This document shows, one piece after another, positions 3,009 through 49,266 of a DNA stretch of 64,000 bases. Numbering within the stretch: position 1 is the stretch's first letter; each line of letters opens with the position of its first letter. The stretch is from Candidatus Nomurabacteria bacterium (GTDB lineage: Bacteria; Patescibacteriota; Minisyncoccia; Phycocordibacterales; UBA9973): NCBI GenBank assembly GCA_021413905.1, contig JAIOPO010000005.1, positions 81,271 to 145,270 of the forward strand, read 5' to 3'. A program made the position numbers and the translations under genes. The notes beneath the pieces are model-generated. The model made no database searches, had not been told where the DNA came from, and saw only the letters and a list, made by a program, of their open reading frames with translations.

Positions 3009-3096
3009 ATGTAATAATTATACCATTTGAGAATTTAGATTCAAAGGAATATATAAAAAATATTATTGAAAATATTTTTTATAACACTAAGGTTTG

Positions 3097-3170
3097 TCCA
3101 CCCTCTTGGATTCGAACCAAGGACCCCAGAGGTATAAGCTCTGTGCTCTAACCAACTGAGCTAAGGGTGG
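3097..3170 (-). tRNA. tRNA with anticodon UAU (AUA-decoding tRNA-Ile type).
   Basis: Folds as a 74-nt cloverleaf on the minus strand: acceptor CCACCCT/AGGGTGG, U8, D-arm GCTC-AGTTGGTTA-GAGC with G18G19, anticodon arm CAGAG-CTTATAC-CTCTG (U33, anticodon TAT), T-arm CTTGG-TTCGAAT-CCAAG, discriminator A. No CCA is encoded. Confidence 0.7.
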
Positions 3171-3174
3171 ATAA

Positions 3175-3204
3175 ACAAATGTTTAAGATAAACATTTGTT
3201 ATTG
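3175..3204 (-). terminator. 11-bp AT-rich hairpin between the ftsH stop and the tRNA (terminator or processing site).
   Basis: acaaatgttta-agat-taaacatttgt inverted repeat, read directly from the sequence. Confidence 0.35.
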
Positions 3205-3254: not shown

Positions 3255-5162
3255 CTACACTTCAAGTTTCTTTGGCAAAATACCATTTGCTATGATTATT
3301 TTTTCATAGTCTTCTTGCTCAAGAGTTTCAACTTCAATAAGCTTGTCAGCTATTGCTTTCAATGCTTTTTTGTTTTCAGTCAAAACTTTTTCTGCGGATT
3401 TCAAACCATCATTTATGATTCTTGAAACTTCAGAGTCAATCTTCATAGCGATGTCTTCTGAATATTCTTTTTCAACTGGATCATTCCATTGAGACTTTCC
3501 GCCATCACTGCTGAGAGCCACAGGTCCGATAACATCCGACATCCCCCACCTCGTCACCATAGCGCGAGCGAGGTTCGTCGCCACTTGCAAATCACTCGAA
3601 GGTCCTGTAGTAATATCTCCGAAAATCATTTTCTCCGCCACATATCCGCCAAGGGACATTGCTATGTCATCTATAAATTCTTTTTTGGATTGCAGTTTTC
3701 TTTCTTCGAGTGGAAGCTTCATTGTGTATCCGCCTGCACGTCCGCGAGCAACAATAGAAACTTTATGCACAGGGTCAGCGTATGGCAAGACAGAAGCCAC
3801 GAGCGCATGCCCCGCTTCGTGATATGCAGTAATTTCTTTTTCTTTTTTAGTAAGTAAATGACTTTTTCTTTCAGGTCCCATCATCACTTTTTCTATGGAG
3901 CGTATCAAATCAAATTGAAAAACTTTTTTTCTATTTTCACGCGCTGCCAATATCGCGGACTCATTCATAAGTGAAAACAAATCTGCGCCAGAAAAACCAG
4001 GTGTTCTCTCCGCAATTAATTTCAAATTGATATCTTCAGCCAATGGCTTTTTTAATGAGTGAATTTTTAAAATTTCTTCACGGTCTGCACGGTCAGGTAA
4101 ATCAAGAATAACTTTTCTATCGAAACGTCCCGGGCGAATGAGCGCAGGATCCAAAACATCCGGTCTATTTGTCGCCGCCATTACTATCACTTTATCATTT
4201 GGTTCAAAGCCATCCATCTCCACCAAGATTTGGTTCAATGTCTGCTCACGTTCGTCATTACCCCCACCAAAACCTCCTCCGCGAGTACGCCCTATCGCGT
4301 CTATTTCATCCACGAAAATAATAGCTGGAGCGGATTTCTTTGCCATTTTAAAAAGATCACGCACTCGACTCGCTCCCACACCCACAAACATTTCCACGAA
4401 TTCAGAACCGGATAAATGGAAAAATGGCACGCCTGCTTCCCCTGCTACGGCTCTTGCTAATAAAGTTTTTCCTGTACCAGGTGAACCAGTCAAAATAACT
4501 CCTTTTGGAATTCGCGCACCAATATCCAAAAACTTTTTCGGTGCTTTCAAAAAATCAACGATTTCTAAAAGTTCCTGTTTAGCTTCCTTATTGCCAGCGA
4601 CATCTTTAAATGTGACTTTGCTATTTTGATCATTTGGATCTGTTATGCGTGCTTTTGATTGACCGAAAGTAAAAGCTTGCATGCCTGAGCCTTTTACTTG
4701 TCTGGACATATACCAAAAGAAAAAAATTACAAAAATTACAGGTAGAGCAAATGGTAAAATATTTCCCAACCAAAACAAAACACCATTATCACTCTTTATT
4801 TTTACTTCAACAGCCTGCACAGCTTCGGCTTTTACACCATAATTATATAAAGTCTGAGATAAAGAAGACTCTATTTCTTTTTTAGATTTTTTAACATCGC
4901 CATTTTTGTATGCGATATTTAATTTATCAGCTTCAACAGCAATACTTTTCACTTCTCCAGAAGAAACACTTTTTGCTAAATCAGAAATAGGTATCTCTGG
5001 TATTTCTTTTGAAGAACTAGAAATTACCAAATATAAACCAGTAATCAGCATAAAAATCATAACTGCACCAAATATATTTCCAGTAAAATTTGGCTCTGCA
5101 TCTTTCTTTTTTCCTTTTTTATTCTCTTGTTTATTATTTAAAAAATTTAAATCCATTTTCAT
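3255..5162 (-). CDS. ftsH: ATP-dependent zinc metalloprotease FtsH.
   Basis: N-terminal TM segment, AAA Walker A GSPGTGKT, and zinc motif HEAGHA. Confidence 0.95.
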
Positions 5163-5620: not shown

Positions 5621-6014
5621 TTTGTGGAACTGACGAGAATTGAACTCGTGTGCAGAAGGTTTTTGCAAAGAAGTCTACATATTTAGCGCATTTTTTTGTT
5701 TAAATTTTAAAATTCTTAAATGAACAAAATATTTTAAAATCGAGTTCTAAATTTTAGTGAAATATGCGAACAAATATTTCCTTATCCCGATAATATTATA
5801 CCCATTCTCATATATCGGAAGTCTATGAGATGGACACCAGTTTGGCTTACGCGAAAGCTGGAGCGAAAGCAAAATCATTCATACCGAAGTATGGTGATGC
5901 TTTCACTTTAGAAGCTAATTTTGCAATTAACATTTGAACTAAGTTTTACGAGATTACGTTCATTCTCGATATGCATCAATAGCAAAAGGCCCACTGTCTA
6001 TGCCTTGCAGTCCC
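5621..6014 (-). ncRNA. ssrA: tmRNA (ssrA, transfer-messenger RNA).
   Basis: The 5' GGGACUG pairs with the 3' CAGUUCC, giving the G3:U70 tRNA-Ala identity pair. The 3' T-arm is ACGAG-TTCAATT-CTCGT followed by a 7-nt acceptor strand and discriminator A. An internal tag reading frame ends ...GMNDFAFAPAFA-UAA. It lies immediately downstream of and co-oriented with smpB. Confidence 0.75.
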
Positions 6015-6026
6015 AATATTTTATTT

Positions 6027-6479
6027 TCAACGTCCTTTATATTCTCTACGAAGCTCTCGGTCTGTGTCGCGTTTTTTTGTAGTTTCACGTTTATCGTATT
6101 TCTTTTTTCCTTTAACCAAAGCTATTTTGACTTTGATTTTTCTACCTTTATTATACACTGCTATTGGTACTATAGTCAAGCTTTTGTTTTTTTCAGTTTC
6201 TACGAGTTCTATGATTTCTTTTTTCGTCAGTAATAATTTTTTATTTCTTAAAGGATCATAATCTTTAGGTGCATTTTTTACTTGATATGGCGGAATATTT
6301 GCATTAATTAAAAAAGCCTCCCCCCCACGGATAACAATAAAAGCCCCTTCGAGAGACATTTTGCCATCACGAACTGATTTTACCTCAGTCCCTAAAAGCT
6401 CAATGCCAGATTCGTAGTTTTCCAAAATCTCATAATCAAAAAGCACTTTTCTATTTTCAGCATAATTTGCCATACACAC
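6027..6479 (-). CDS. smpB: SsrA-binding protein SmpB.
   Basis: The protein starting MANYAEN...GTEVKSVR is typical SmpB and it is adjacent to the tmRNA. The true start is probably the second or third Met. Confidence 0.9.
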   Translation of the reverse strand: MCMANYAENRKVLFDYEILENYESGIELLGTEVKSVRDGKMSLEGAFIVIRGGEAFLINANIPPYQVKNAPKDYDPLRNKKLLLTKKEIIELVETEKNKSLTIVPIAVYNKGRKIKVKIALVKGKKKYDKRETTKKRDTDRELRREYKGR

Positions 6480-9688: not shown

Positions 9689-11053
9689 TTAACATTCTAA
9701 TAAAATGCTCTCTCCTTGTTCGGGAGCATAAGCATCGACACCAAGATTGTCTCTCAATTTTTGAACTAAAAATAAAGCAGATTTTGGTTCGCCCATCACG
9801 ACAAAAATTTTTCGTACTGTGTCTTGAGTATCTTCTACGAAATTCACCAAACCGTCAGAATCTTTATGTCCGGAATATCCGGAAATTGTGACTATATGAG
9901 CACGCACAGGAACATCTTCACCTGTAATTCGAACCACTTTTGCGCCTTCTTGAATCAATCTACCCATAGTACCCACAGACTGATATCCTGTGAGCAAAAG
10001 AGTATTATTTGGATCTGGTAAATAATGTCTCTCATGATGCACAACACGCCCTCCTGAAGACATACCAGAACCAGCTATCACTATCTTTGGATTTGGCACA
10101 TTTACAATCATTTTAGATTCTTCTGATTTTAAAGTTGAATGAAGTCCGGGAAAATCAAATAAATGTTTACCTTCAGAAATAGCTTTTTGTGCTGTTTCAT
10201 TAAAATAATTTTTAAATTGTTTAAAAACATTTGTCAGATGAATAGCTAAAGGTGAATCTAAAAATATCGGCATAATAGGAATGCGTTGTTCTTCCACTAA
10301 TGCATCTATTTCAAACAAAAGCTCTTGTGAACGCTCCAAAGAAAATGTTGGTATTACGAGAGTGCCTTTTCTTTTATAATTGTCTTCAATAGTCGCTTCT
10401 AGAAACTTTCTTCTTCCCTCTCTGGATTCATGATTTCTATCTCCGTAAACACTTTCCATTATCAAATAATCTATATCGGTAATTTTTTCTGTATCGGGCA
10501 AAAGCGGTGAAGGACTGTTGCCTAAATCTCCAGTAAAAAGAATTTTCTTTCCATTATAAAAAAATTCCGCCATACCTGAACCCAAAATATGTCCTGCGTT
10601 CCTAAAAGAAACAGAGAGATTCTCATTGATTTGTATTTTTTCATGATATTCAAAACCTTCCCATAAAGAAAGAGCGAGTTTTATATTTTCTTCCGTATAG
10701 ATTTCATTTAATTTATTTTCCGTATTTCTGGATAAAATACCCATAGTATCTTCGAGCATCGGACTTGCGAGTTCTCGCGTAGGTTTTGTGGAATATATTT
10801 TTCCGCGAAAACCATCGTAAATTAATTTTGGAATTCTACCCAAATGATCCACATGAGCATGAGTAACAAAAAGTATATCTATACTTTTTGGATCATAAGA
10901 AAATGGCGCCCAATTTATATCATCAGCCATTTTAGAACCTTGAGTCAATCCGCAATCTATTAGTATTTTTTTATCTTCAACTTCCAACAAAAAATTCGCG
11001 CCTGTCACCGAGCCTGTCCCTCCATAAAAAGTTATTTTAGCTGTTTTTGACAT
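9689..11053 (-). CDS. MBL-fold beta-CASP RNA-metabolising nuclease (CPSF / RNase J-like).
   Basis: Metallo-beta-lactamase HxHxDH motif (HAHVDHLG) followed by a beta-CASP-like region; 454 aa. Confidence 0.8.
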   Translation of the reverse strand: MSKTAKITFYGGTGSVTGANFLLEVEDKKILIDCGLTQGSKMADDINWAPFSYDPKSIDILFVTHAHVDHLGRIPKLIYDGFRGKIYSTKPTRELASPMLEDTMGILSRNTENKLNEIYTEENIKLALSLWEGFEYHEKIQINENLSVSFRNAGHILGSGMAEFFYNGKKILFTGDLGNSPSPLLPDTEKITDIDYLIMESVYGDRNHESREGRRKFLEATIEDNYKRKGTLVIPTFSLERSQELLFEIDALVEEQRIPIMPIFLDSPLAIHLTNVFKQFKNYFNETAQKAISEGKHLFDFPGLHSTLKSEESKMIVNVPNPKIVIAGSGMSSGGRVVHHERHYLPDPNNTLLLTGYQSVGTMGRLIQEGAKVVRITGEDVPVRAHIVTISGYSGHKDSDGLVNFVEDTQDTVRKIFVVMGEPKSALFLVQKLRDNLGVDAYAPEQGESILLEC

Positions 11054-14800: not shown

Positions 14801-17575
14801 CTACCCATTTCTCTTCTCATATCTGCCCATGATTTCTGCTTCAACTTCTTCCCTGTCACGTCCATATTTGAGATAGGATAATTCTTTCAGACTTTCCACT
14901 ATTTCCGGATTGCCTTTTGGCAACAAAGACCAATGAGATGTCATACTGAAAGGTTTTGTAGGTGTGCCATTTACGAGCATACTCACATAAGAATTAAAAT
15001 TATCCAATTTCATAATATCTGTCGCTGAAAAAGTTGGCTTAAATTTAGACTCAATGGCAGTGGCATCTTCTGGAGAAACACGATAAACAGCCATAGAACC
15101 GACGTTTCCAAAAACAGCATTTTTAATATTTTCTTCAAGTTGAGAAATGTATTGATGAGCGACAGTCAAAGACAAACGATATTTGCGGGCTTCGGAAAGA
15201 ATAGAAGCGATGGAGTCTGTAGTCACATTTTGGAATTCATCGATATAAAGATAAAAATCATTCATCGGTTTGCCAAACATATCCACGCGAGAAAGTGCCG
15301 CCATTTGTATTTTACCTACAAGTAAAAGACCTATCAAATTCGCATTGATGTCTCCCAGGCGACCTTTGGATAAATTAACCAAAAGTATTTTTTTATTATC
15401 CATAATTTCTCGGAAATTAAAAACAGATTTTTCCTGCAAGACCACAGGACGCATAATATCATTTGAAATAAAATTATCAAATTTAGAAGTAATATACGGC
15501 ACAAAGTTTGCCAGGCCTTGGTCACCTGTTGTTTGTTCCGCAGCCATCCAGAATTGCTTGATAATAGGATTTTTACATTTTGCCAATTTCATATCACGAA
15601 ATTCTTTGTCAGTCAAAACACGGGAAATCTCAAGTAATGTACAACCAGACTCAGGATCTTCCATTATCAAAAAAGCGGAATTTTTGAAATATTGTTCAAA
15701 CATCGGCCCACCGGAAGTTTTCATATCAAAAAGTTTATTAAAAATTCCCATCAATTCGTTTACTACAAAAGTTTTTTGTTCAGGATATTTTGGATCAAAT
15801 TCAAGCATATTGAGACCCATAGGACGCGCAGTATATGCAGGATCAAAATAAATAACATCATCAATGCGTTCTTTTGGAACATAAGACAAAATCTCTTGTA
15901 TATCACTACCATGCGGATCTATAAAACAACAACCATCACCATTCATAATATCTTGAGCAATCATATTTTTTAAAATAGTGGTTTTACCAGTACCAGTCTG
16001 ACCTATAACATACATATGACGCATTCTATCTTCACGAGACATATGTATTTCTGTGTCACGTCCTCTATAACTATTTATCCCCAACAATATACCATCTTTG
16101 CCCATTTCCATAGGAGCAGGTGCCATACCGGCTTTTGCTTCTTTGAGTTGAGGTTGACTTGAAATACCGACAGGATAATGAAAAACGGAAGCCAATTCTT
16201 TTAAATTCATCGGTAAAACTTTTCCAGAATTAAATGTGCGATAAGAAAAATCATGAAATAAATCTTTCAAGCCTGAACCTTTTATTTTTTCAAAAACAAA
16301 AGAATTACTCGCTGATTCTTTAAATTGATTAAAAGAAGACTCAATCTCATTCAAAATTTCTTCCGCACGGATTAATGTTTCCGCAGACGCAACAACACGA
16401 ATATTTGCTTTCAAAATTGAACTTTTTAATTTATTACCTATTTTCTCAACAGCCCCCTCATCCACAGGCCTTCGCCCTTTCATATATTTTTCATCTTTTT
16501 GTTCATTTTTTTTAGAATCATCAAATACCAAACCTTTCACTGCTTGAAAAAAAGCATGCTCAAATTTATAAAAATTATCATTTGCATGTTTTACAGAAAT
16601 TCCACTTTTTACATCATCTAAAATCATATGAAATTCTCTTGTAAATTTTTCACCCGCTGGAGCTACGACGATCTGTATAGCTGCTCCTTCTCCTTGTGTT
16701 TTTAATTTTGAAAATACATTCAAAATAGTATTCATAGGATCATGATCTATATTGTCATAAGTTTTTATAGGCAAAATCGGTCTTTCAGAAAAATGAGCAT
16801 AAGCCCCCACAGAAAAACCTTTTTCGTTGAAAAGATTATAATCTTCAGTTACTTCATTTATTTTTGCATCATGATAAAAAGCCAATACTTGTTTTTCAAA
16901 AAGAGAAATATACTTATTTGGAACAGCAGTATATACCACCACCTCATCACTTTGATTTCCTAACGCAACTTCAAGGGTGAAGTAATTGTCTTTTGAATTA
17001 AATTTATCTTCAGCTATTGATTGCATACCCGCATAAAATTGTTCCATTGCACCAATAAATTCTTTGAAACCTTTTTGCATTTCAGCTTCGTCTTTTGACG
17101 GTGGTAATGTAATTTCAAACAATGTCATATTTAAAGATTTCCAAATAGGTGTACCTTCTTTTAAACCAGAAATAAGTTGCCCTGTCTTTAAATACTGAAC
17201 CAATAATCTATGAAAATCATCATCGACATGAGCATTGTTCATTGAACTTACAGTATCTAAAGCATTTTTTATTCCCTTGGTTAATAAAATACCCAAAAGT
17301 TCTTCCATCACCACATCATGCTTTTCGGGTTTCAATTTTAAAATAATCGTTTCTTTTTCTTTTTTATTCAATAAATTATCTTTACTTAAAACATCAACAG
17401 AAGAAACTTTTTCATATTCAGAAATTGTATTATTCAACGTGTCAATTTCAGCATTTTCAAAATGACCCCTATCGATTAATTCTTTTTCTTTTTGAGCAAC
17501 ATGTGCGCGCAAATACTCCAATTCTTCATTTGGAGTTTTAAATTTTGGTATATCTTTAAAATATGAATTTTCCAT
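14801..17575 (-). CDS. Large P-loop ATPase. The C-terminal half is a TraG/VirD4/FtsK-HerA-type (type IV secretion coupling-protein-like) ATPase domain. The N-terminal ~500 aa are uncharacterised.
   Basis: Walker A GQTGTGKTT, Walker B LYIDEFQ, and a C-terminal TraD/TraG-like segment (RKYRLSLTVAHQYISQL). No N-terminal TM helices. Confidence 0.6.
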   Translation of the reverse strand: MENSYFKDIPKFKTPNEELEYLRAHVAQKEKELIDRGHFENAEIDTLNNTISEYEKVSSVDVLSKDNLLNKKEKETIILKLKPEKHDVVMEELLGILLTKGIKNALDTVSSMNNAHVDDDFHRLLVQYLKTGQLISGLKEGTPIWKSLNMTLFEITLPPSKDEAEMQKGFKEFIGAMEQFYAGMQSIAEDKFNSKDNYFTLEVALGNQSDEVVVYTAVPNKYISLFEKQVLAFYHDAKINEVTEDYNLFNEKGFSVGAYAHFSERPILPIKTYDNIDHDPMNTILNVFSKLKTQGEGAAIQIVVAPAGEKFTREFHMILDDVKSGISVKHANDNFYKFEHAFFQAVKGLVFDDSKKNEQKDEKYMKGRRPVDEGAVEKIGNKLKSSILKANIRVVASAETLIRAEEILNEIESSFNQFKESASNSFVFEKIKGSGLKDLFHDFSYRTFNSGKVLPMNLKELASVFHYPVGISSQPQLKEAKAGMAPAPMEMGKDGILLGINSYRGRDTEIHMSREDRMRHMYVIGQTGTGKTTILKNMIAQDIMNGDGCCFIDPHGSDIQEILSYVPKERIDDVIYFDPAYTARPMGLNMLEFDPKYPEQKTFVVNELMGIFNKLFDMKTSGGPMFEQYFKNSAFLIMEDPESGCTLLEISRVLTDKEFRDMKLAKCKNPIIKQFWMAAEQTTGDQGLANFVPYITSKFDNFISNDIMRPVVLQEKSVFNFREIMDNKKILLVNLSKGRLGDINANLIGLLLVGKIQMAALSRVDMFGKPMNDFYLYIDEFQNVTTDSIASILSEARKYRLSLTVAHQYISQLEENIKNAVFGNVGSMAVYRVSPEDATAIESKFKPTFSATDIMKLDNFNSYVSMLVNGTPTKPFSMTSHWSLLPKGNPEIVESLKELSYLKYGRDREEVEAEIMGRYEKRNG

Positions 17576-24206: not shown

Positions 24207-24788
24207 CTAAACATGACGATTTAAAAATTCATTTCTCATACCTGCAAATGCAACCGCAGCAGAAAAAATCTGACAAATAGCTATAAAAGGTGACCCTGTT
24301 TCAATCATCAAATAAGTTACTAATAAATGAGTAAATAAGTAACTAATCCAACCAATAATATTAACGGTCTTTTTATTAAGAGCCAAAAAAATAGTTCCGA
24401 CAAGTCCACCTAAGACAGAAAAAAATTGAATTAAAACTAAATTCTCATTTATTGCTTGAATTAAAAAGAAAATACAAACAACTGTAGTAATAGTAAAAAT
24501 AACAATTTTAAAAATAAGATTCCATTTTTTTAAAACTTTATTTAAATTATGTTTTTTTACAGAACTTGAAACTAAATATCCGTAAATCATAATAAAAATT
24601 AAAGCTACATCATATACCACCATAATCCATAGATTACCCCTATCTTCTAACACCATTTGAAGATAAAAATATATCGTAATTGTTATGGTTCCTAAAATTC
24701 CAAGACTCCAACCAATCGTCTTCTTTTTAAAAACAAAATATTTGTTCAATAAAAGAAGCAATGCGGAAATAATTTGCAATGCTAGCAT
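24207..24788 (-). CDS. Polytopic membrane protein (about 6 TM) inserted between rplE and rpsZ.
   Basis: 193 aa, strongly hydrophobic; no ribosomal function expected at this position. Confidence 0.55.
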   Translation of the reverse strand: MLALQIISALLLLLNKYFVFKKKTIGWSLGILGTITITIYFYLQMVLEDRGNLWIMVVYDVALIFIMIYGYLVSSSVKKHNLNKVLKKWNLIFKIVIFTITTVVCIFFLIQAINENLVLIQFFSVLGGLVGTIFLALNKKTVNIIGWISYLFTHLLVTYLMIETGSPFIAICQIFSAAVAFAGMRNEFLNRHV

Positions 24789-32668: not shown

Positions 32669-32805
32669 ATATTTTTTATGTTTAATGGCTAAAACTCAGC
32701 ATACGAGATGTAATTGCTAAGGCTTAGTCACTAATAAATTAATTAATAATAAACTAAAAAACTGTAAAATTGGCAATATAAAAACCGCCAAAAGTGCAGT
32801 TACAT

Positions 32806-32836
32806 CTATACTAGCAGATTAAAAAAGAATGTCAAA
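32806..32836 (-). promoter_or_regulatory. Family P2 promoter (minus strand: TTGACA-N16-TGC-TAGTAT) upstream of tuf.
   Basis: Conserved block aatctgcTAGTATAG. Confidence 0.5.
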
Positions 32837-32872
32837 TAAAAAACCAGCAGTAGACAAGTCATACTGCTGGTT
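32836..32872 (-). terminator. Intrinsic terminator after the lipoprotein gene (ccagcag-...-ctgctgg stem plus U-run on the minus strand).
   Basis: Seen directly in the sequence. Confidence 0.6.
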
Positions 32873-32892
32873 ATTATTTAGATTTTTTGTGG

Positions 32893-33159
32893 TCATTTTG
32901 CCATGACCAAAGTTAGCATGTATGGTTCTCTTTCGAGAACCACAGTATCTCCGATTTTCGTTTTAAAAAAAATATATTCGTTCACTTTTGGAACGAATAC
33001 TTTTTCTCCTGTTATAAGCATTTTTGCTTCCATGGAGATTTTTATGCCGGTAGCGTTTTCTGTATATTCCCGATGGATAACAATAGCCTTGCCCACAGGA
33101 GTATTGTTGCAAGCCACCAAAATAGTAGCCAACAATAGCAATAAAATTAACTTTTTCAT
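32893..33159 (-). CDS. Small lipoprotein (signal peptide with lipobox LVAC).
   Basis: MKKLILLLLLATILVACNN... Confidence 0.55.
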   Translation of the reverse strand: MKKLILLLLLATILVACNNTPVGKAIVIHREYTENATGIKISMEAKMLITGEKVFVPKVNEYIFFKTKIGDTVVLEREPYMLTLVMAK

Positions 33160-33182
33160 AATCGAAATTACTTTTTAAATTG

Positions 33183-33270
33183 CCTACTCGTTAGTTTTTC
33201 GGCAAACACTAGTCAAGTTTCAATGAACCTTATCTGTGTATATGATAGCATATTGTTAATAAAAAGTCAA
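33183..33270 (-). repeat. Copy B of the P1 promoter-plus-leader repeat (-35/-10 at 33242-33270).
   Basis: About 93% identical to 24810-24900. Confidence 0.6.
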
Positions 33271-33321
33271 GCATAAAAATGACTTTATTACAAAATACCT
33301 TATTAAATATAGCTTTTCCCT

Positions 33322-33332
33322 ATGTCAGACAT
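33322..33332. promoter_or_regulatory. Second copy of the palindrome ATGTCaGACAT (18-bp motif atgtcNgacatatggaaa).
   Basis: Direct sequence match to 31428-31445. Confidence 0.4.
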
Positions 33333-33350
33333 ATGGAAAAGCTAATAAAT

Positions 33351-33378
33351 AAAAAGACGCCCCCTAAGAGGCGTCAAT
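33351..33378 (-). terminator. Intrinsic terminator overlapping the trxA stop (gacgcc-...-ggcgtc plus U-run on the minus strand).
   Basis: Seen directly in the sequence. Confidence 0.55.
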
Positions 33379-33645
33379 TAATTGTTTTACAGTCTTTTGA
33401 TAATCAGAAGCTTTAGATGCTCCAATTATCCTTTTTGTCTCTTCCCCATCTTTTAAAAAGATGGTGGTAGGGACATTCCTTACCCTGAATCGACTTGCGA
33501 TTTCAGTGTTTTCTTCAAGGTCAATTGAGACCTTTTGAAAAACCAAAGAAGGATTTTCTTTCAGAATTTCCTCCAAAACAGGGTAAACAATACTGCAAGG
33601 ACCGCATCCAGGCGCAGTAAAGAATAAAATCTCTATTTTTTTCAT
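33364..33645 (-). CDS. trxA: Thioredoxin.
   Basis: CGPC active site (FFTAPGCGPCSIV). Confidence 0.9.
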   Translation of the reverse strand: MKKIEILFFTAPGCGPCSIVYPVLEEILKENPSLVFQKVSIDLEENTEIASRFRVRNVPTTIFLKDGEETKRIIGASKASDYQKTVKQLIDAS

Positions 33646-33712
33646 TTTTTCATTTTTAAGAACTATTTAATGTATATCATAAAAACAAAATAAAGTCAAG
33701 TTAAATAGATTT

Positions 33713-34873
33713 TTAATTTGCAGATGTATTATTTTTTTCCTCTTCTTCTTTTATCATATGATTTATTTTTTCTAATCCATATTTAAATTTTCTATTCAAT
33801 TCTTGATCTTTAGACATATCTCCATAATCATATAAATACCAATCTGTTAAATAAGGGTCTTTTTTTTCACCACTAAGCATATTTGTGGCTGAAAAAGGAT
33901 CGGAATAAACATAAACATATCCCCTATTTGCAGACTCCTCGTAAGCTTTTTTGAATTTTTTTAGAATTTCTAATCTTTCTAATGGATTAGATTTACTATC
34001 ATCAAAGAAAAACATTTGCATATCCTCACCATCTATAAATTCTTCAAAAATAGAACCTTTTGCCCCATCAAAAACAGCTCCATAATATTCTGGAATACCA
34101 TGCAATCCTTGCAAATCAGTTAGTGCTTTAGACTGTGTATATGTCGTATCCATTACAAAATATTCTTTATTATTTTTTTCATCAAAAATCTTATATCTAA
34201 AAAAATTACCCGGTTCTTCGGTTTCATCAGGTGGCATATCTGAAATTTTAAATCTGGAAGATATAAGATTACCTGCTATGCCTATTTTTTCAACAATGTA
34301 TTTTTCTTTATTGGTATTTATTTCTTTTACTTTAAGTCTAAAAATAATACCGGAAACTCCCTGAGAGAGTCTTTCTCTACCTCCTAGAACTTCAAGACCT
34401 TTTTCTAAAAGGTGTTTTTTGACTTTCTCAAAATCAGTATAATTTTCCAAGTAAAAATTTGAATCTTTTTCTTTTGAAGAAAAAGATGGTTTTTCATTAC
34501 CGAATAAATATTTTACAGCAATTTCCGCATCTTTATGATTTGTATCTGCTGAATCCAAGATTTGAACTTTAAATTCTTCGCCATTTTCTAATTTTACATT
34601 TTTCTCCTCAAAATAAGTATTATTAAATTCTTTTTCTAATGAAATTAATTTATCTTTGACAAAATAAAGAGACGGCAGATCTTGATAATCGATCTCTAAA
34701 TCTAACCTAGTTCTAATTTTATTATAATCTTCTAATGTTTTTGAAATTTTCAATTTCAAAGTGTTTATTTCTATTTTTAAATTTTCTTTATTTTTTATAT
34801 TAGAAAAAACTGCTTGAATATTCTGTTCTTTAACACTAGTATTTTCTTTTGTTTTTAATATTTCTTCTTTCAT
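33713..34873 (-). CDS. Hypothetical protein, 386 aa (K/E-rich coiled-coil-like N-half, globular C-half).
   Basis: No confident family. Located between fusA and trxA. Confidence 0.4.
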   Translation of the reverse strand: MKEEILKTKENTSVKEQNIQAVFSNIKNKENLKIEINTLKLKISKTLEDYNKIRTRLDLEIDYQDLPSLYFVKDKLISLEKEFNNTYFEEKNVKLENGEEFKVQILDSADTNHKDAEIAVKYLFGNEKPSFSSKEKDSNFYLENYTDFEKVKKHLLEKGLEVLGGRERLSQGVSGIIFRLKVKEINTNKEKYIVEKIGIAGNLISSRFKISDMPPDETEEPGNFFRYKIFDEKNNKEYFVMDTTYTQSKALTDLQGLHGIPEYYGAVFDGAKGSIFEEFIDGEDMQMFFFDDSKSNPLERLEILKKFKKAYEESANRGYVYVYSDPFSATNMLSGEKKDPYLTDWYLYDYGDMSKDQELNRKFKYGLEKINHMIKEEEEKNNTSAN

Positions 34874-34899
34874 TTCAATATTAAATTATAACACACAAA

Positions 34900-34930
34900 T
34901 TTTTAATAAAAAAAACCGCAATTAGTGCGG
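34900..34930. terminator. Bidirectional intrinsic terminator after fusA (accgca-attag-tgcggt flanked by A8/T8).
   Basis: Seen directly in the sequence. Confidence 0.65.
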
Positions 34931-34959
34931 TTTTTTTTATTTTTTAAATAGAAACTAAT

Positions 34960-37728: not shown

Positions 37729-38154
37729 TTATTTCTTTCCGTCTTTCTTTGGTTTCTTGTTTCCGTAAAGTGAACGACCTTGACGTCTCTTTTCAACTCC
37801 TTGAGTATCAAGCACACCACGAACTATATGATAACGAACTCCGATCAAGTCTTTCACACGACCTCCGCGCAACATAACCACAGAGTGTTCTTGCAAATTG
37901 TGTCCTTCTCCTGGAATATAAGCAGTGACTTCCATACCGTTAGTCAAACGTACACGAGCGATTTTACGGAGAGCAGAGTTTGGTTTCTTTGGGGTGATAG
38001 TTGTAACTTTTGTACAAACTCCTCTTTTGAAAGGAGATGGGAAAAATACAGGACGATTTTTTAATGTGTTAAATCCACGCGCTAAAGCCACAGCCTTTGA
38101 TTTTTGACTTATCTTGCTTCTGTTCTTTTTAATTAATTGATTGATTGTTGGCAT
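37729..38154 (-). CDS. rpsL: 30S ribosomal protein S12.
   Basis: S12 sequence (PNSALRK, GGRVKDLPGVRY). Confidence 0.95.
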
Positions 38155-46503: not shown

Positions 46504-49266
46504 CTAATTTGTTAAAGAATTAATTAATTTTCTTGTAGCAGGACCAAAAATACCATCAGCCTTTAAATTCAAATGTGATTTCTGAAATTGGATCAAAGCA
46601 TTTTTAGTAGCATTCCCAAATTTATTGGTTTCAAAACCTTTAGAACCAACACCTCTTAAAGAAACAGGAAAACCATTTTTATTCAAAAATTCTTGTAATT
46701 TCTTCACATCAAGAGAGGTGTTTCCAAACTTTAAATTATTTTTAAATTTAAAGTTATTATTTGAACTTAAATTTACACAATTATTCAAAGAGCAATCATT
46801 GTTGTTGATAAGATTATTTTGATTTTGATTTAAATTATTCAACAATAAAGCAACACCAGATGGTCTACTGTGCACAACAAAAGGAGTCATTGTTAACATA
46901 TTACTTTGATTACCAAAAGAATCCGTAACACGCACGAAACAATTATGTACACCGACAGGTAAATAGTTTAAAGTAATATGATTAACACCAGAAGAAACAG
47001 AAGTTGTACCAGAAGAACAATCACCATAAAAAACAACACTGCCAGATTCAGAAGAATTTAAATCATAAACAGGAGTACTGTTTGTTGAATTTTGAATTGC
47101 TGATATTTCATTTATTACAGGTGCTTCTGTGTCCACTTCATAATTAGAAGAATCAGTAGAAGCAGAAGGTGCATTACCTGTACTTGTATACCAAGAAGTA
47201 CCGACAGTGATAACATTTGAAAGATCAGCAACAGAAGAATCTGGTGTAAATAATGCCGTATAAATTGTAGGATCAGAAGTTACAGTAAAATCAGAAATTG
47301 AACCATTGGATACGGAAACATCAGCTGAAGTAAAAGCAGTGGGTGTCTCAGAAAAAGTAAATGTAATTGTCGCAGTATCACTTGATTTAAAAGTGTACCG
47401 ACTGAGTGAAATCACAACACTCGGTATAGTTTGATTTACGGTTAATGTATTAGCACTCACTGTTCCAGTTCTTGAATTCACAGCTATATCTGTCAGAACT
47501 GCTTTAAAATTAAAAATATCACTATTTGCAAAATCAGTAATTGCTTCAAAATCTGAAGCAGAGATAGACATTGTTTTTGTTCCAGCTACAACATCTCCAC
47601 TCAAAATAGTATACGCACTTCCAAGATTAGCATATGCACCACTATTTCTACTTGCTTGTATTTGAATTGTTCCACCAATCAAAGAATCATCATTAGAGTT
47701 TAAAGGAACAATAATATTTAAACTAGTATTAGTAGAATTCCAATAATCTGCAACAACGTTTCCACCCACAGATGTCACTGCCCCAGTAGTGAATGCAATC
47801 GGCAAAGTAACGTCAGTACCTGCTGATCCTAATAATAAAGTAGTAGTACCGGCTCCTTGATTTGAAACAGCGATATCTATAATCCCATCATTATTAAAAT
47901 CTGCAGTATTTAATGAAATAGGAGTAGACCCTACAGCGATATCTATTTTAGCACCGAAAGTTCCGTCTCCAACTCCAATTAAAAAAGAAATTGTATTTGC
48001 AGTTTGGTTTGAAACAATCAAATCCTGTTTTCCATCTCTATTTAAATCTACAACGGAAATAAAAACACCAGCATTAGTGCCGACATTATAATTCACAGCG
48101 GTAGCAAAGCTACCAAGACCATCACCAATTAAAACAGAAAGATTGCTTGTGGTTTGATTTGAGGAAACCAAATCAACTTTTCCATCATTATTAAAATCAC
48201 CATAACTCAAACCAATAGGAGCAGTACCAACACTATAATTCACAGCGGTAGCAAAGCTACCAAGACCATCACCAATTAAAACAGAAACGGAATTTGAAGT
48301 TTGGTTTGAAACAGCAATATCAAGATGACCATCACCGTTCAAATCAGTTGAAACAACTCCAGTAGGAGCAGAACCCACAGTAAATGATACAGGGTTAGCA
48401 AAAGTACCAGTACCTGAACCAAAAATAACAGTCGCACTCGTACCTGCTACTGTAGTGGAAACAACCAAATCAATATTACCGTCTTCATTGAAATCACCAG
48501 AAGACATATAACGAGATGTTTTACCAACAGAATAAGTAGAATTAGTACCAAAACTTCCAGCTCCATCACCCAGCAAAACAGAAATACTATTTCCATTATC
48601 ACTTGTAGCAGCTATGTCTAATTTTCCATCTTTGTTAAAATCAGCAACCACCATTCCTCTTGGACGTGAGGCTACTGTGTAATTCGTAGCGGTACCCATA
48701 TTCCCTGTTCCATCGCCGAGAAAAACAGAAATATTTGCAGATGTTTGATTTGAAACAGCCATATCCATATTTCCATCTTGATTGAAATCAGCAGTGACCA
48801 CAAATCTATTACTAGTACCTACAGTATAAGGTGAATGCGATTCAGCAGAAGCTGTATAGTCAAAAAAATGACAACCGCTTGTGGTAAAATTTTGAACAGT
48901 AGAAGCATTGCCTACTCCTGCACTATTCACAGCAAAAGCTTTATAGTAATAAGTAGTATTACATTTCAAAGAAGCACTTGGAAATGTATAAGAAAAAGAA
49001 CCAGTATTAAAAGAACCACTTTTTACAACTTGAAAATTTAAATTATTAGAAGCAGTACCATAATTAAAACCGACAGACAATGCATTCTCTCCACCAGTAT
49101 CACTAATATTTCCCAACAAAACAGCTGAAGTCGCCCCTACTGTAACCAAAGGTGAAGTAGTACTGACTGTTGGAGCAGAAATTGCAAATGCTGAATTTGT
49201 TAAAAATCCAAAGAATATAAAAATTATATATAAAAAAACGCCGTATTTTGTATTATATGTTCGCAT
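46504..49266 (-). CDS. Large exported protein: N-terminal FN3-like region, seven FG-GAP/VCBS-type repeats (beta-propeller) and a C-terminal peptidoglycan-binding (PG_binding_1-like) domain.
   Basis: Signal peptide. Repeats of the form DFN.DG..D.....N.....SV..G.G.G.F occur seven times. The C-terminal segment carries the PG_binding_1-like motifs KKLQEFLNKNGF...DGIFGPATRKLI. Confidence 0.7.
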   Translation of the reverse strand: MRTYNTKYGVFLYIIFIFFGFLTNSAFAISAPTVSTTSPLVTVGATSAVLLGNISDTGGENALSVGFNYGTASNNLNFQVVKSGSFNTGSFSYTFPSASLKCNTTYYYKAFAVNSAGVGNASTVQNFTTSGCHFFDYTASAESHSPYTVGTSNRFVVTADFNQDGNMDMAVSNQTSANISVFLGDGTGNMGTATNYTVASRPRGMVVADFNKDGKLDIAATSDNGNSISVLLGDGAGSFGTNSTYSVGKTSRYMSSGDFNEDGNIDLVVSTTVAGTSATVIFGSGTGTFANPVSFTVGSAPTGVVSTDLNGDGHLDIAVSNQTSNSVSVLIGDGLGSFATAVNYSVGTAPIGLSYGDFNNDGKVDLVSSNQTTSNLSVLIGDGLGSFATAVNYNVGTNAGVFISVVDLNRDGKQDLIVSNQTANTISFLIGVGDGTFGAKIDIAVGSTPISLNTADFNNDGIIDIAVSNQGAGTTTLLLGSAGTDVTLPIAFTTGAVTSVGGNVVADYWNSTNTSLNIIVPLNSNDDSLIGGTIQIQASRNSGAYANLGSAYTILSGDVVAGTKTMSISASDFEAITDFANSDIFNFKAVLTDIAVNSRTGTVSANTLTVNQTIPSVVISLSRYTFKSSDTATITFTFSETPTAFTSADVSVSNGSISDFTVTSDPTIYTALFTPDSSVADLSNVITVGTSWYTSTGNAPSASTDSSNYEVDTEAPVINEISAIQNSTNSTPVYDLNSSESGSVVFYGDCSSGTTSVSSGVNHITLNYLPVGVHNCFVRVTDSFGNQSNMLTMTPFVVHSRPSGVALLLNNLNQNQNNLINNNDCSLNNCVNLSSNNNFKFKNNLKFGNTSLDVKKLQEFLNKNGFPVSLRGVGSKGFETNKFGNATKNALIQFQKSHLNLKADGIFGPATRKLINSLTN

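Follow-up and report, generated by a model that had tools for sequence, protein, structure and literature searches.

Most bacteria read the AUA codon as isoleucine, with AUG rejected, by means of a tRNA-Ile2 whose CAU anticodon is modified to lysidine (k2CAU) by TilS, and tilS is found in about 98% of annotated genomes (PMC12514573). Here we describe a different solution, a tRNA-Ile gene with the anticodon UAU encoded in the DNA itself, found in a 64,000-nt stretch (hereafter, the window) of a Candidatus Nomurabacteria genome (assembly GCA_021413905.1, contig JAIOPO010000005.1, positions 81,271 to 145,270), and compare it with genes of this kind already known. Such tRNAs have been reported from nine species in three clades, together with 371 unassigned metagenomic tDNA-Ile(TAT) sequences (PMC3575796); "Ile3(UAU)" has been noted in 17 genomes (tRNAscan-SE 2.0, PMC8450103), and a 2026 preprint speaks of "rare cases" of tRNA-Ile(UAU). 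In Mycoplasma mobile, U34 of tRNA-Ile2(UAU) is unmodified, the isoleucyl-tRNA synthetase (IleRS) is of the bacterial type with Arg865, and the organism's own ribosome blocks the reading of AUG; Bifidobacterium and Neorickettsia have tRNA-Ile(UAU) and a eukaryote-type IleRS without tilS; in Lactobacillus casei, Lactobacillus plantarum, Cyanothece PCC 7424 and Ferrimonas balearica, tilS and tRNA-Ile(UAU) occur together (all from PMC3575796). Finally, a suppressor of a Bacillus subtilis tilS deletion demonstrates that a bacterium may be viable without TilS, due to a recruited U34 tRNA-Ile (Fabret 2011; Kohrer 2014, PMC3919564).

By its encoded anticodon and its predicted function, the tRNA from the window belongs to the same type of AUA decoding as those of M. 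mobile, Bifidobacterium and Neorickettsia, and we consider it likely that it acts, free of lysidine, as the main or sole AUA decoder of its host. As in M. mobile, a DNA-encoded UAU would read AUA as isoleucine in a reduced, AT-rich genome where AUA is abundant. However, the switch in M. mobile is recent and concerns one species, while the Patescibacteria tRNA is fixed over a large clade at a constant locus, and its C1-G72 pair and C32/C38 are features that set it against the M. mobile tRNA. As in Bifidobacterium and Neorickettsia, the UAU tRNA apparently replaces tRNA-Ile2(CAU), and an IleRS of the IleRS2 type is apparent in two Paceibacteria-related genomes, as far as the covered parts of the published supplements go; still, Bifidobacterium and Neorickettsia belong to other phyla and the trait there is genus-level, whereas here it extends over whole classes of Patescibacteria. 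Direct U34 decoding of AUA with an IleRS2-type enzyme, presumably as here, and with no modified cytidine, is also characteristic of members of the other domains, namely Nanoarchaeum equitans, Korarchaeum cryptofilum and eukaryotes. Eukaryotic tRNA-Ile(UAU) genes contain an intron, and their products have pseudouridines in positions 34 and 36; unlike them, the Patescibacteria gene is intron-free and has a bacterial context. The B. subtilis suppressor was a laboratory event in a single strain, while the state observed in Patescibacteria is natural, fixed and ancient.

Structure and identity of the tRNA gene

The gene reads 5' to 3' from position 3170 down to position 3097 of the window, on the minus strand (Table 1). 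ARAGORN identifies it as tRNA-Ile with the anticodon tat at 3096-3170, that is, one base longer than the boundaries used here, and the Rfam family RF00005 matches 3097-3170 over the full model (positions 1-71) with 69 bits against the gathering score of 29 (E-value 5.8e-13). From the acceptor stem to the discriminator base the sequence is CCACCCU UA GCUC AGUUGGUUA GAGC A CAGAG CUUAUAC CUCUG GGGUC CUUGG UUCGAAU CCAAG AGGGUGG A. The anticodon loop comprises C32-U33-U34-A35-U36-A37-C38, the first pair is C1-G72, the discriminator is A73, and CCA is not encoded.

An earlier, sequence-only reading of this locus had proposed a canonical cloverleaf with UAU in the loop CUUAUAC, the C1-G72 first pair and A73, without giving the strand. 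All of these features are found in the minus-strand sequence: ARAGORN and Rfam agree on the fold and on UAU, no other anticodon being assigned, and the cloverleaf is confirmed by covariation in related loci (see below). The single-sequence fold has a minimum free energy (MFE) of -30.2 kcal/mol (z = -2.8 versus shuffles) and reproduces the acceptor and T arms of the cloverleaf, while the D and anticodon arms are mis-paired; the evidence for the complete cloverleaf comes from ARAGORN, Rfam and the covariation rather than from this fold. The gene is real beyond reasonable doubt. It is the only tRNA gene in the window, where the sole other structured RNA found by ARAGORN and Rfam is the transfer-messenger RNA (tmRNA).

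The anticodon of the gene is TAT and not CAT, which sets the tRNA apart from the canonical tRNA-Ile2(CAU), and lysidine is thus neither needed nor possible on it. The body of the molecule presumably resembles that of E. coli tRNA-Ile2, in that its D stem is GCUC/GAGC, its acceptor strand has C4-C5-C6-U7, and U8-A9 and A73 are present. In blastn comparison with E. coli genomes, the best matches of the tRNA are tRNA-Arg and tRNA-Val at about 77-84%, a distance too great for the isotype to be assigned in this way.

Table 1. Features at and around the tRNA-Ile(UAU) locus (positions in the window)
Feature	Coordinates	Strand	Remarks
Candidate terminator hairpin	3052..3083	-	perfect 13-bp AT-rich hairpin, 13 nt past the tRNA 3' end; repeat search, fold
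tRNA-Ile(UAU) gene	3097..3170	-	74 nt to discriminator A73; ARAGORN, Rfam, sequence, covariation
Anticodon U34-A35-U36	3134..3136	-	ATA on the plus strand; within the loop CUUAUAC
Upstream hairpin	3174..3200	-	perfect 12-bp AT-rich hairpin, 3-nt loop; repeat search; fold -9.6 kcal/mol
ftsH	3255..5162	-	635 aa; translation, Pfam AAA/Peptidase_M41
tmRNA (ssrA)	5622..6014	-	Rfam, 113.9 bits; ARAGORN
smpB	6027-6479	-	read from the translation

Conservation of the gene and its position

One genome per GTDB species was scanned with a pattern built from the D arm, anticodon loop and variable region. It matched at least 119 loci, nearly all of which are labelled as Nomura-, Taylor-, Kaiser-, Zambryski- or Doudnabacteria, Paceibacterota, or Patescibacteria. 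Among the matches listed, ARAGORN calls tRNA-Ile(tat) in 113 of 119 loci, 91 begin with C1, and the closest locus (L107, JAZJXT01) encodes FtsH with 84.6% amino acid identity. In the species-genome loci that hold both genes, again among the matches listed, the tRNA is always downstream of ftsH (85 of 85), being on the same strand in 63 cases and inverted in 22.

The second sample, which avoids selection on the anticodon, was seeded by the FtsH protein of the window and comprises 80 metagenome loci with FtsH identity of 69-84%. In 71 of these loci, ftsH is followed directly by tRNA-Ile(tat) on the same strand, while the remaining nine have at most 700 bp of sequence past ftsH; no CAU tRNA occupies the place after ftsH in any of the 80 loci. 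Since the scan pattern would catch only 30 of these 71 tRNAs, the number of at least 119 loci is a clear underestimate.

All 71 tRNAs from the FtsH-seeded loci have the identical loop CUUAUAC, and 67 begin with C1. Among the 26 distinct tRNAs of this sample pairing is kept in 99.6% of cells, and double-sided changes are seen at 14 of 21 pairs; the covariation score was reached by none of 500 shuffles, and in slid controls 30-50% of cells pair. As judged from these comparisons, the tRNA-Ile(UAU) gene is functional, is subject to strong purifying and compensatory selection, and is fixed in the clade at a constant locus. As this is a common state in Patescibacteria, the gene is ordinary for its lineage.

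Phages and genomic islands often bear tRNAs for rare codons ending with A or U, and a VirD4/TraD-like ATPase is encoded 12 kb away from the gene, which raises the question of whether it could have arrived with a phage or an integrative element or by recent horizontal transfer, or else be a decaying pseudogene outside the core translation apparatus. However, the neighbours of the gene are ftsH and the gene of a surface protein, the nearby open reading frames (ORFs) of the window include no integrase or phage gene, its position is kept in the 85 of 85 and 71 of 71 related loci described above, and compensatory changes preserve every helix. With such evidence we give this explanation next to no weight. 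The same flanks and the conserved position speak against an accessory tRNA borne by a phage or island.

Two further observations concern the related loci. Three of the listed pattern matches (L011, L108 and L113) come from metagenome-assembled genomes labelled "uncultured Gammaproteobacteria", one of them on a 638-kb contig; L108 and L113 also carry tRNA-Val(GAC) and tRNA-Glu(UUC). These three may be mislabelled bins or genuine carriers outside Patescibacteria.

The other observation is a tRNA with a long variable arm and the loop UUACUAA, called tRNA-Ser(ACU) by ARAGORN and thus having A34, in 11 related Patescibacteria loci: L016 (4623-4710), L067 (7018-7105), L078 (225-311), L096 (7298-7384), L106 (128-217), L133 (12546-12633), L155 (12019-12108), L167 (11695-11782), L175 (10816-10903), L176 (8206-8293) and L180 (12790-12877). 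It always adjoins a normal tRNA-Ser(GCU), and in one copy a pair of the anticodon stem has changed on both sides; the window has no such gene. To our knowledge, bacterial A34 tRNAs are normally limited to tRNA-Arg(ACG).

AUA codon usage and meaning

The sequence-only reading described AUA as abundant, and indeed it accounts for 29.4 per 1000 codons and 34% of isoleucine codons in 69 ORFs of the window; in genes of the translation apparatus its frequency is 20 per 1000. In the columns corresponding to the 18 ATA codons of ftsH from the window, 162 homologues have ATT (31%), ATA (25%), ATC (15%) and ATG (3.5%), so that isoleucine codons fill 70% of these columns. When six proteins are compared with their E. 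coli orthologues, ATA sites correspond to Ile in 12, Leu in 12, Val in 9 and Met in 5 of 62 cases, while ATG sites correspond to Met in 33 of 73. From the codon exchange and the alignment with E. coli together it follows that, as far as sequence comparison can tell, AUA means isoleucine and the UAU anticodon is its cognate reader.

These data bear directly on the possibility that AUA is reassigned, for example to methionine, its meaning in many mitochondria, or that the tRNA has a non-isoleucine identity owing to C1-G72. This pair is unusual among bacterial elongator tRNAs, being a feature of tRNA-Pro in E. coli. The elements recognized by E. coli IleRS include A38 and C29-G41, as well as A73, U12-A23 and C4-G69. 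The latter three are all found in tRNA-Ile(UAU), while C38 and G29-C41 are unlike E. coli tRNA-Ile. Given these three features, the low share of ATG in the ATA columns of the 162 homologues, and the aliphatic nature of the residues aligned with ATA sites, with only five Met of 62, reassignment or a different identity is very improbable. More generally, no recoding is inferred for the window, because all ORFs remain intact under the translation table 11; an alternative genetic code was considered and dismissed, TGA serving as the terminator of smpB only.

Lysidine system: tilS and tRNA-Ile2(CAU)

The tRNA itself needs no lysidine, and the question is whether the genome keeps TilS and tRNA-Ile2(CAU) in addition. 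The sequence-only reading predicted that tilS is missing or else that U34 bears a special modification against AUG misreading, and neither of its refuting conditions was observed in the DNA covered. Searches with E. coli TilS (tblastn and phmmer), with the PP-loop motif SGGxDS of TilS, and with a hidden Markov model of the TilS N-domain (built from the E. coli, Geobacillus and Aquifex proteins) found no TilS, either in the window or across the 1.63 Mb of related loci. Many bacteria keep the tilS-hpt-ftsH gene arrangement. In the window, the tilS-hpt place upstream of ftsH is taken by a member of an ORF family of the SmpB size and the tmRNA, and tilS does not adjoin ftsH in any of about 165 loci. 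The ORF family, of about 149 aa, is the commonest neighbour upstream of ftsH in the related loci, and by analogy with the window we read it as a putative smpB. As for CAU tRNAs, ARAGORN finds none in the window, and the only one in the related loci is initiator-like.

In the covered parts of the gene tables from the supplements of two Paceibacteria papers, the only match to TilS is a mislabel: gene PMX_810_sub_00091 of a Paceibacterales bin (PMC10936435, Table S2), named "tRNA(Ile)-lysidine synthase" by Prokka, is an N-acetyl-sugar amidotransferase and, as far as seen there, lies in a polysaccharide gene cluster. Hence, surveys of tilS based on gene names can yield false positives.

Whole-genome evidence comes from relatives, namely, from the tRNAscan-SE and ARAGORN counts for 95 complete Patescibacteria genomes (PMC13011429, Table S2), where ARAGORN labels every CAU tRNA as "Met". 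Our tabulation of these counts reveals a reciprocal pattern. At least two non-CAU isoleucine tRNAs and at most two CAU tRNAs are present in 40 genomes, a single non-CAU isoleucine tRNA and at least three CAU tRNAs in 50, at least two and at least three, respectively, in five, whereas no genome has at most one non-CAU isoleucine tRNA together with at most two CAU tRNAs (Fisher test, p = 1e-21). Supported by the pattern scan and the FtsH-seeded loci, we read the second isoleucine tRNA of the complete genomes as UAU. The text of the source paper ("Group I introns in tRNA genes of Patescibacteria", PMC13011429) mentions neither the reciprocal pattern nor UAU or lysidine.

By these counts, all Dojkabacteria (7 of 7) and Microgenomatia (12 of 12) are of the UAU type, as well as one genome each of WWE3, UBA1384 and Doudnabacteria. 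All four ABY1 genomes have the second isoleucine tRNA, two of them along with three CAU tRNAs. In Paceibacteria, 14 genomes are UAU-only, one has both systems, and five are canonical. The canonical state is found in Saccharimonadia, Kazan-3B-28, most Gracilibacteria, and JAEDAM01, which probably corresponds to Absconditabacteria.

The main rival explanation is that tRNA-Ile(UAU) is a redundant decoder, with tilS and tRNA-Ile2(CAU) present elsewhere in the genome, so that k2CAU and UAU tRNAs would share the reading of AUA. Double systems do exist, as in Lactobacillus casei/plantarum, Cyanothece and Ferrimonas (PMC3575796), and the five complete genomes with at least two isoleucine and at least three CAU tRNAs, including one of 20 Paceibacteria, may match this mixed state; of the present genome, 64 kb were covered. 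However, in Lactobacillus, Cyanothece and Ferrimonas the UAU tRNA is sporadic and redundant, while here it is clade-fixed, and most relatives have no third CAU tRNA (14 of 15 Paceibacteria with the second isoleucine tRNA). Moreover, the single locus and the invariant loop, both clade-wide, are expected of an essential sole decoder rather than of a spare one, and no tilS is seen beside ftsH in the loci mentioned above. We therefore regard the redundant decoder as improbable, and the absence of both tilS and tRNA-Ile2(CAU) from this genome as very likely, judging from its relatives.

Several points weigh against lysidine-free decoding by tRNA-Ile(UAU) as the main or sole route. As this genome is seen through 64 kb only, tilS and tRNA-Ile2(CAU) may be located elsewhere in it. 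The search of a collection of 5.8 billion proteins with the TilS N-domain profile produced 120 best matches that are all near relatives of the three queries, and is therefore silent on Patescibacteria. The table of complete genomes counts tRNAs by amino acid, without anticodons, and five of its 95 genomes appear to hold both systems. Finally, C38 and G29-C41 differ from the isoleucine identity elements of E. coli.

Proposed charging of the tRNA and discrimination against AUG

The preferred explanation, with tRNA-Ile(UAU) as the main or sole AUA decoder, implies the following mechanism. The tRNA would be transcribed together with ftsH, or just behind it by read-through, as suggested by the co-orientation of the two genes in most relatives; it would then be trimmed, and CCA would be added enzymatically. 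An IleRS tolerating U34 would charge it with isoleucine, and AUA would be read through a plain U34-A pair. In this way, tRNA-Ile(UAU) would stand in for tRNA-Ile2(CAU) and TilS, most likely lost by the lineage.

An IleRS that accepts UAU would be expected either to have Arg or Lys at the position of E. coli W905 or to be of the eukaryote type (IleRS2). No IleRS gene has been found in the window or the related loci. In the covered parts of paper supplements, IleRS of two Paceibacteria-related genomes is annotated with the C-terminal domain DUF5915, which we take to be a mark of the eukaryote-type IleRS2. Thus IleRS here is probably also of the eukaryote type, as in Bifidobacterium and Neorickettsia rather than M. 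mobile.

Candidates for the discrimination against AUG are the invariant C32/C38, the C1-G72 pair, competition with tRNA-Met, features of the ribosome, and a modification of U34. The last one would leave the role of the tRNA the same, while fidelity would be provided by, for example, pseudouridine or another group in position 34. Unmodified U34 can wobble to G, and reading of AUG on E. coli ribosomes has been reported for the M. mobile tRNA-Ile(UAU); for M. suis, Taniguchi et al. leave the modification open (PMC3575796). On the other hand, the M. mobile tRNA, the only bacterial tRNA-Ile(UAU) to be chemically analysed, has unmodified U34 (PMC3575796), and there is no tRNA-modification gene in the window or beside the tRNA. 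A precedent for such modification is the pseudouridine-A-pseudouridine anticodon of eukaryotic tRNA-Ile. On balance, a modified U34 is possible, but we hold it to be the lesser probability.

More tentatively, the lineage-specific invariants C1-G72 and C32/C38 may themselves be the identity and fidelity determinants that bar AUG, a large share of Patescibacteria then lacking lysidine. The 32-38 pair is known to tune codon affinity. Under this reading, which we consider rather unlikely, lysidine would be missing from about 40-45% of complete genomes; practically every sampled member of Microgenomatia, Dojkabacteria, ABY1 and WWE3 would belong to this share, along with the majority of Paceibacteria. 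If true, the AUA/AUG problem would have a third solution, intrinsic to the tRNA, which may go back to the ancestor of the radiation; this would bear on the proposed use of an unmodified UAU tRNA in early life.

Among ribosomal features, we considered protein S12 (37729-38154, minus strand), which has Ile in the position of P90 of the mature E. coli protein, where Pro is found in nearly all S12 proteins. Pro90 is a classical site of restrictive (hyperaccuracy) mutations and of streptomycin resistance and dependence. Among 120 close homologues, Ile is found in this position in 113, Val in two and Pro in five, while the best-scoring 150 representatives at 50% identity have Pro in 139 cases, Ile in one, Gly in one and a one-residue deletion in two. 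As the substitution is confined to the immediate clade of the window, it seems not to track UAU decoding (the decoding type of the representatives was not determined); hence Pro90 to Ile was rejected as a ribosomal adaptation against AUG, and no link is claimed.

Genomic context

The window is a chromosome segment of a member of Paceibacteria (Parcubacteria) close to Nomurabacteria; it has a G+C content of about 33% and is dense with housekeeping genes. Matches to family libraries identify ftsH, SecD, ribosomal proteins L5 and L11, nusG, gatA, thyA, folA, rodA and a VirD4/TraD-like ATPase, while ORF translations and comparison with E. coli add smpB, a glmM-like mutase, infC, the ribosomal-protein operon, tuf, fusA, rpsG and rpsL. 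The genes smpB, tmRNA, ftsH and tRNA-Ile(UAU) form one co-oriented block, whose order is often kept in relatives, and DNA similarity to the tmRNA is found in two related loci (L003 and L041). On the other side, tRNA-Ile(UAU) is followed by the gene of a surface protein, which has at least 995 aa and is truncated by the left edge of the window.

The tRNA begins 85 nt past the ftsH stop codon, and a promoter scan of this spacer yielded no convincing candidate; hence co-transcription of the tRNA with ftsH is likely. Both sides of the tRNA gene have AT-rich hairpins (Table 1). The upstream one ends 3 nt ahead of the tRNA 5' end and is possibly a local stabiliser or processing site of the ftsH 3' end. 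The downstream one is a candidate terminator, as modelled from the fold, and seems local to this genome; it fails the rule of a G+C-rich terminator. A conserved processing signal formed by the flanking hairpins was rejected, as they are not kept in relatives, where the mean MFE upstream of the tRNA equals that of shuffles.

Several observations on the remaining part of the window may be mentioned separately. The tmRNA tag predicted by ARAGORN is unusually long, having 25 residues (AKLASKVKASPYFGMNDFAFAPAFA). The TGA stop codon of smpB lies 12 nt before the tmRNA, and smpB is the only real gene of the window that ends with TGA.

The usual fusA-tuf junction is split by about 2.3 kb on the same strand (32669-34959). 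This insert contains ORFs of 386 aa (33713-34873), without a Pfam or NCBIfam match, of 93 aa (33364-33645), with a CGPC motif and looking thioredoxin-like, and of 88 aa (32893-33159), whose N-terminus resembles a lipoprotein signal. In the ribosomal-protein operon, directly downstream of rplE, there is an ORF for a 193-aa membrane protein (24207-24788, minus strand) with a weak match to the nicotinamide-mononucleotide transporter family (PnuC-like, PF04973, E-value 2e-8).

Several large or unusual proteins are also encoded on the minus strand. The surface protein at 1-2985 is rich in Thr, Ser, Gly and Asn and has a signal peptide, and a 920-aa protein (46504-49266) has FG-GAP, Ig-like and peptidoglycan-binding regions. 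The VirD4/TraD-like coupling ATPase (14801-17575, 924 aa) could be part of the type IV secretion system that Patescibacteria are reported to have. For a 454-aa metallo-beta-lactamase RNase of the beta-CASP group (9689-11053), the best-scoring NCBIfam models are "type VII CRISPR Cas14" (403 bits against a cutoff of 800) and archaeal aCPSF1 (307 bits against 580). Neither score reaches its cutoff, and we take the protein for a probable RNase J/CPSF-like enzyme, not a CRISPR protein.

Significance for AUA decoding in Patescibacteria

The sequence-only reading placed genomically encoded tRNA-Ile(UAU) in a few AT-rich or reduced lineages. This agrees with the literature, but understates the distribution, as in Patescibacteria it is a common, clade-fixed state. 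In a literature search, with most subscription journals outside its coverage, no paper was found that joins lysidine, tilS or AUA to Patescibacteria or the candidate phyla radiation (CPR). Thus the kind of decoding is already known, while its lineage-wide occurrence in Patescibacteria is an under-described exception.

Lysidine and TilS are held to be near-universal and essential in bacteria, and our data indicate that decoding through UAU is common in a major bacterial radiation. Many of the metagenomic tDNA-Ile(TAT) sequences left unassigned in 2013 probably come from Patescibacteria. TilS is one of the GTDB bac120 markers; for Patescibacteria of the UAU type, it would not be safe as a universal marker or as an antibiotic target. 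Lastly, the tRNAs of this group provide a natural and diverse sequence set for asking how a U34 tRNA avoids AUG.

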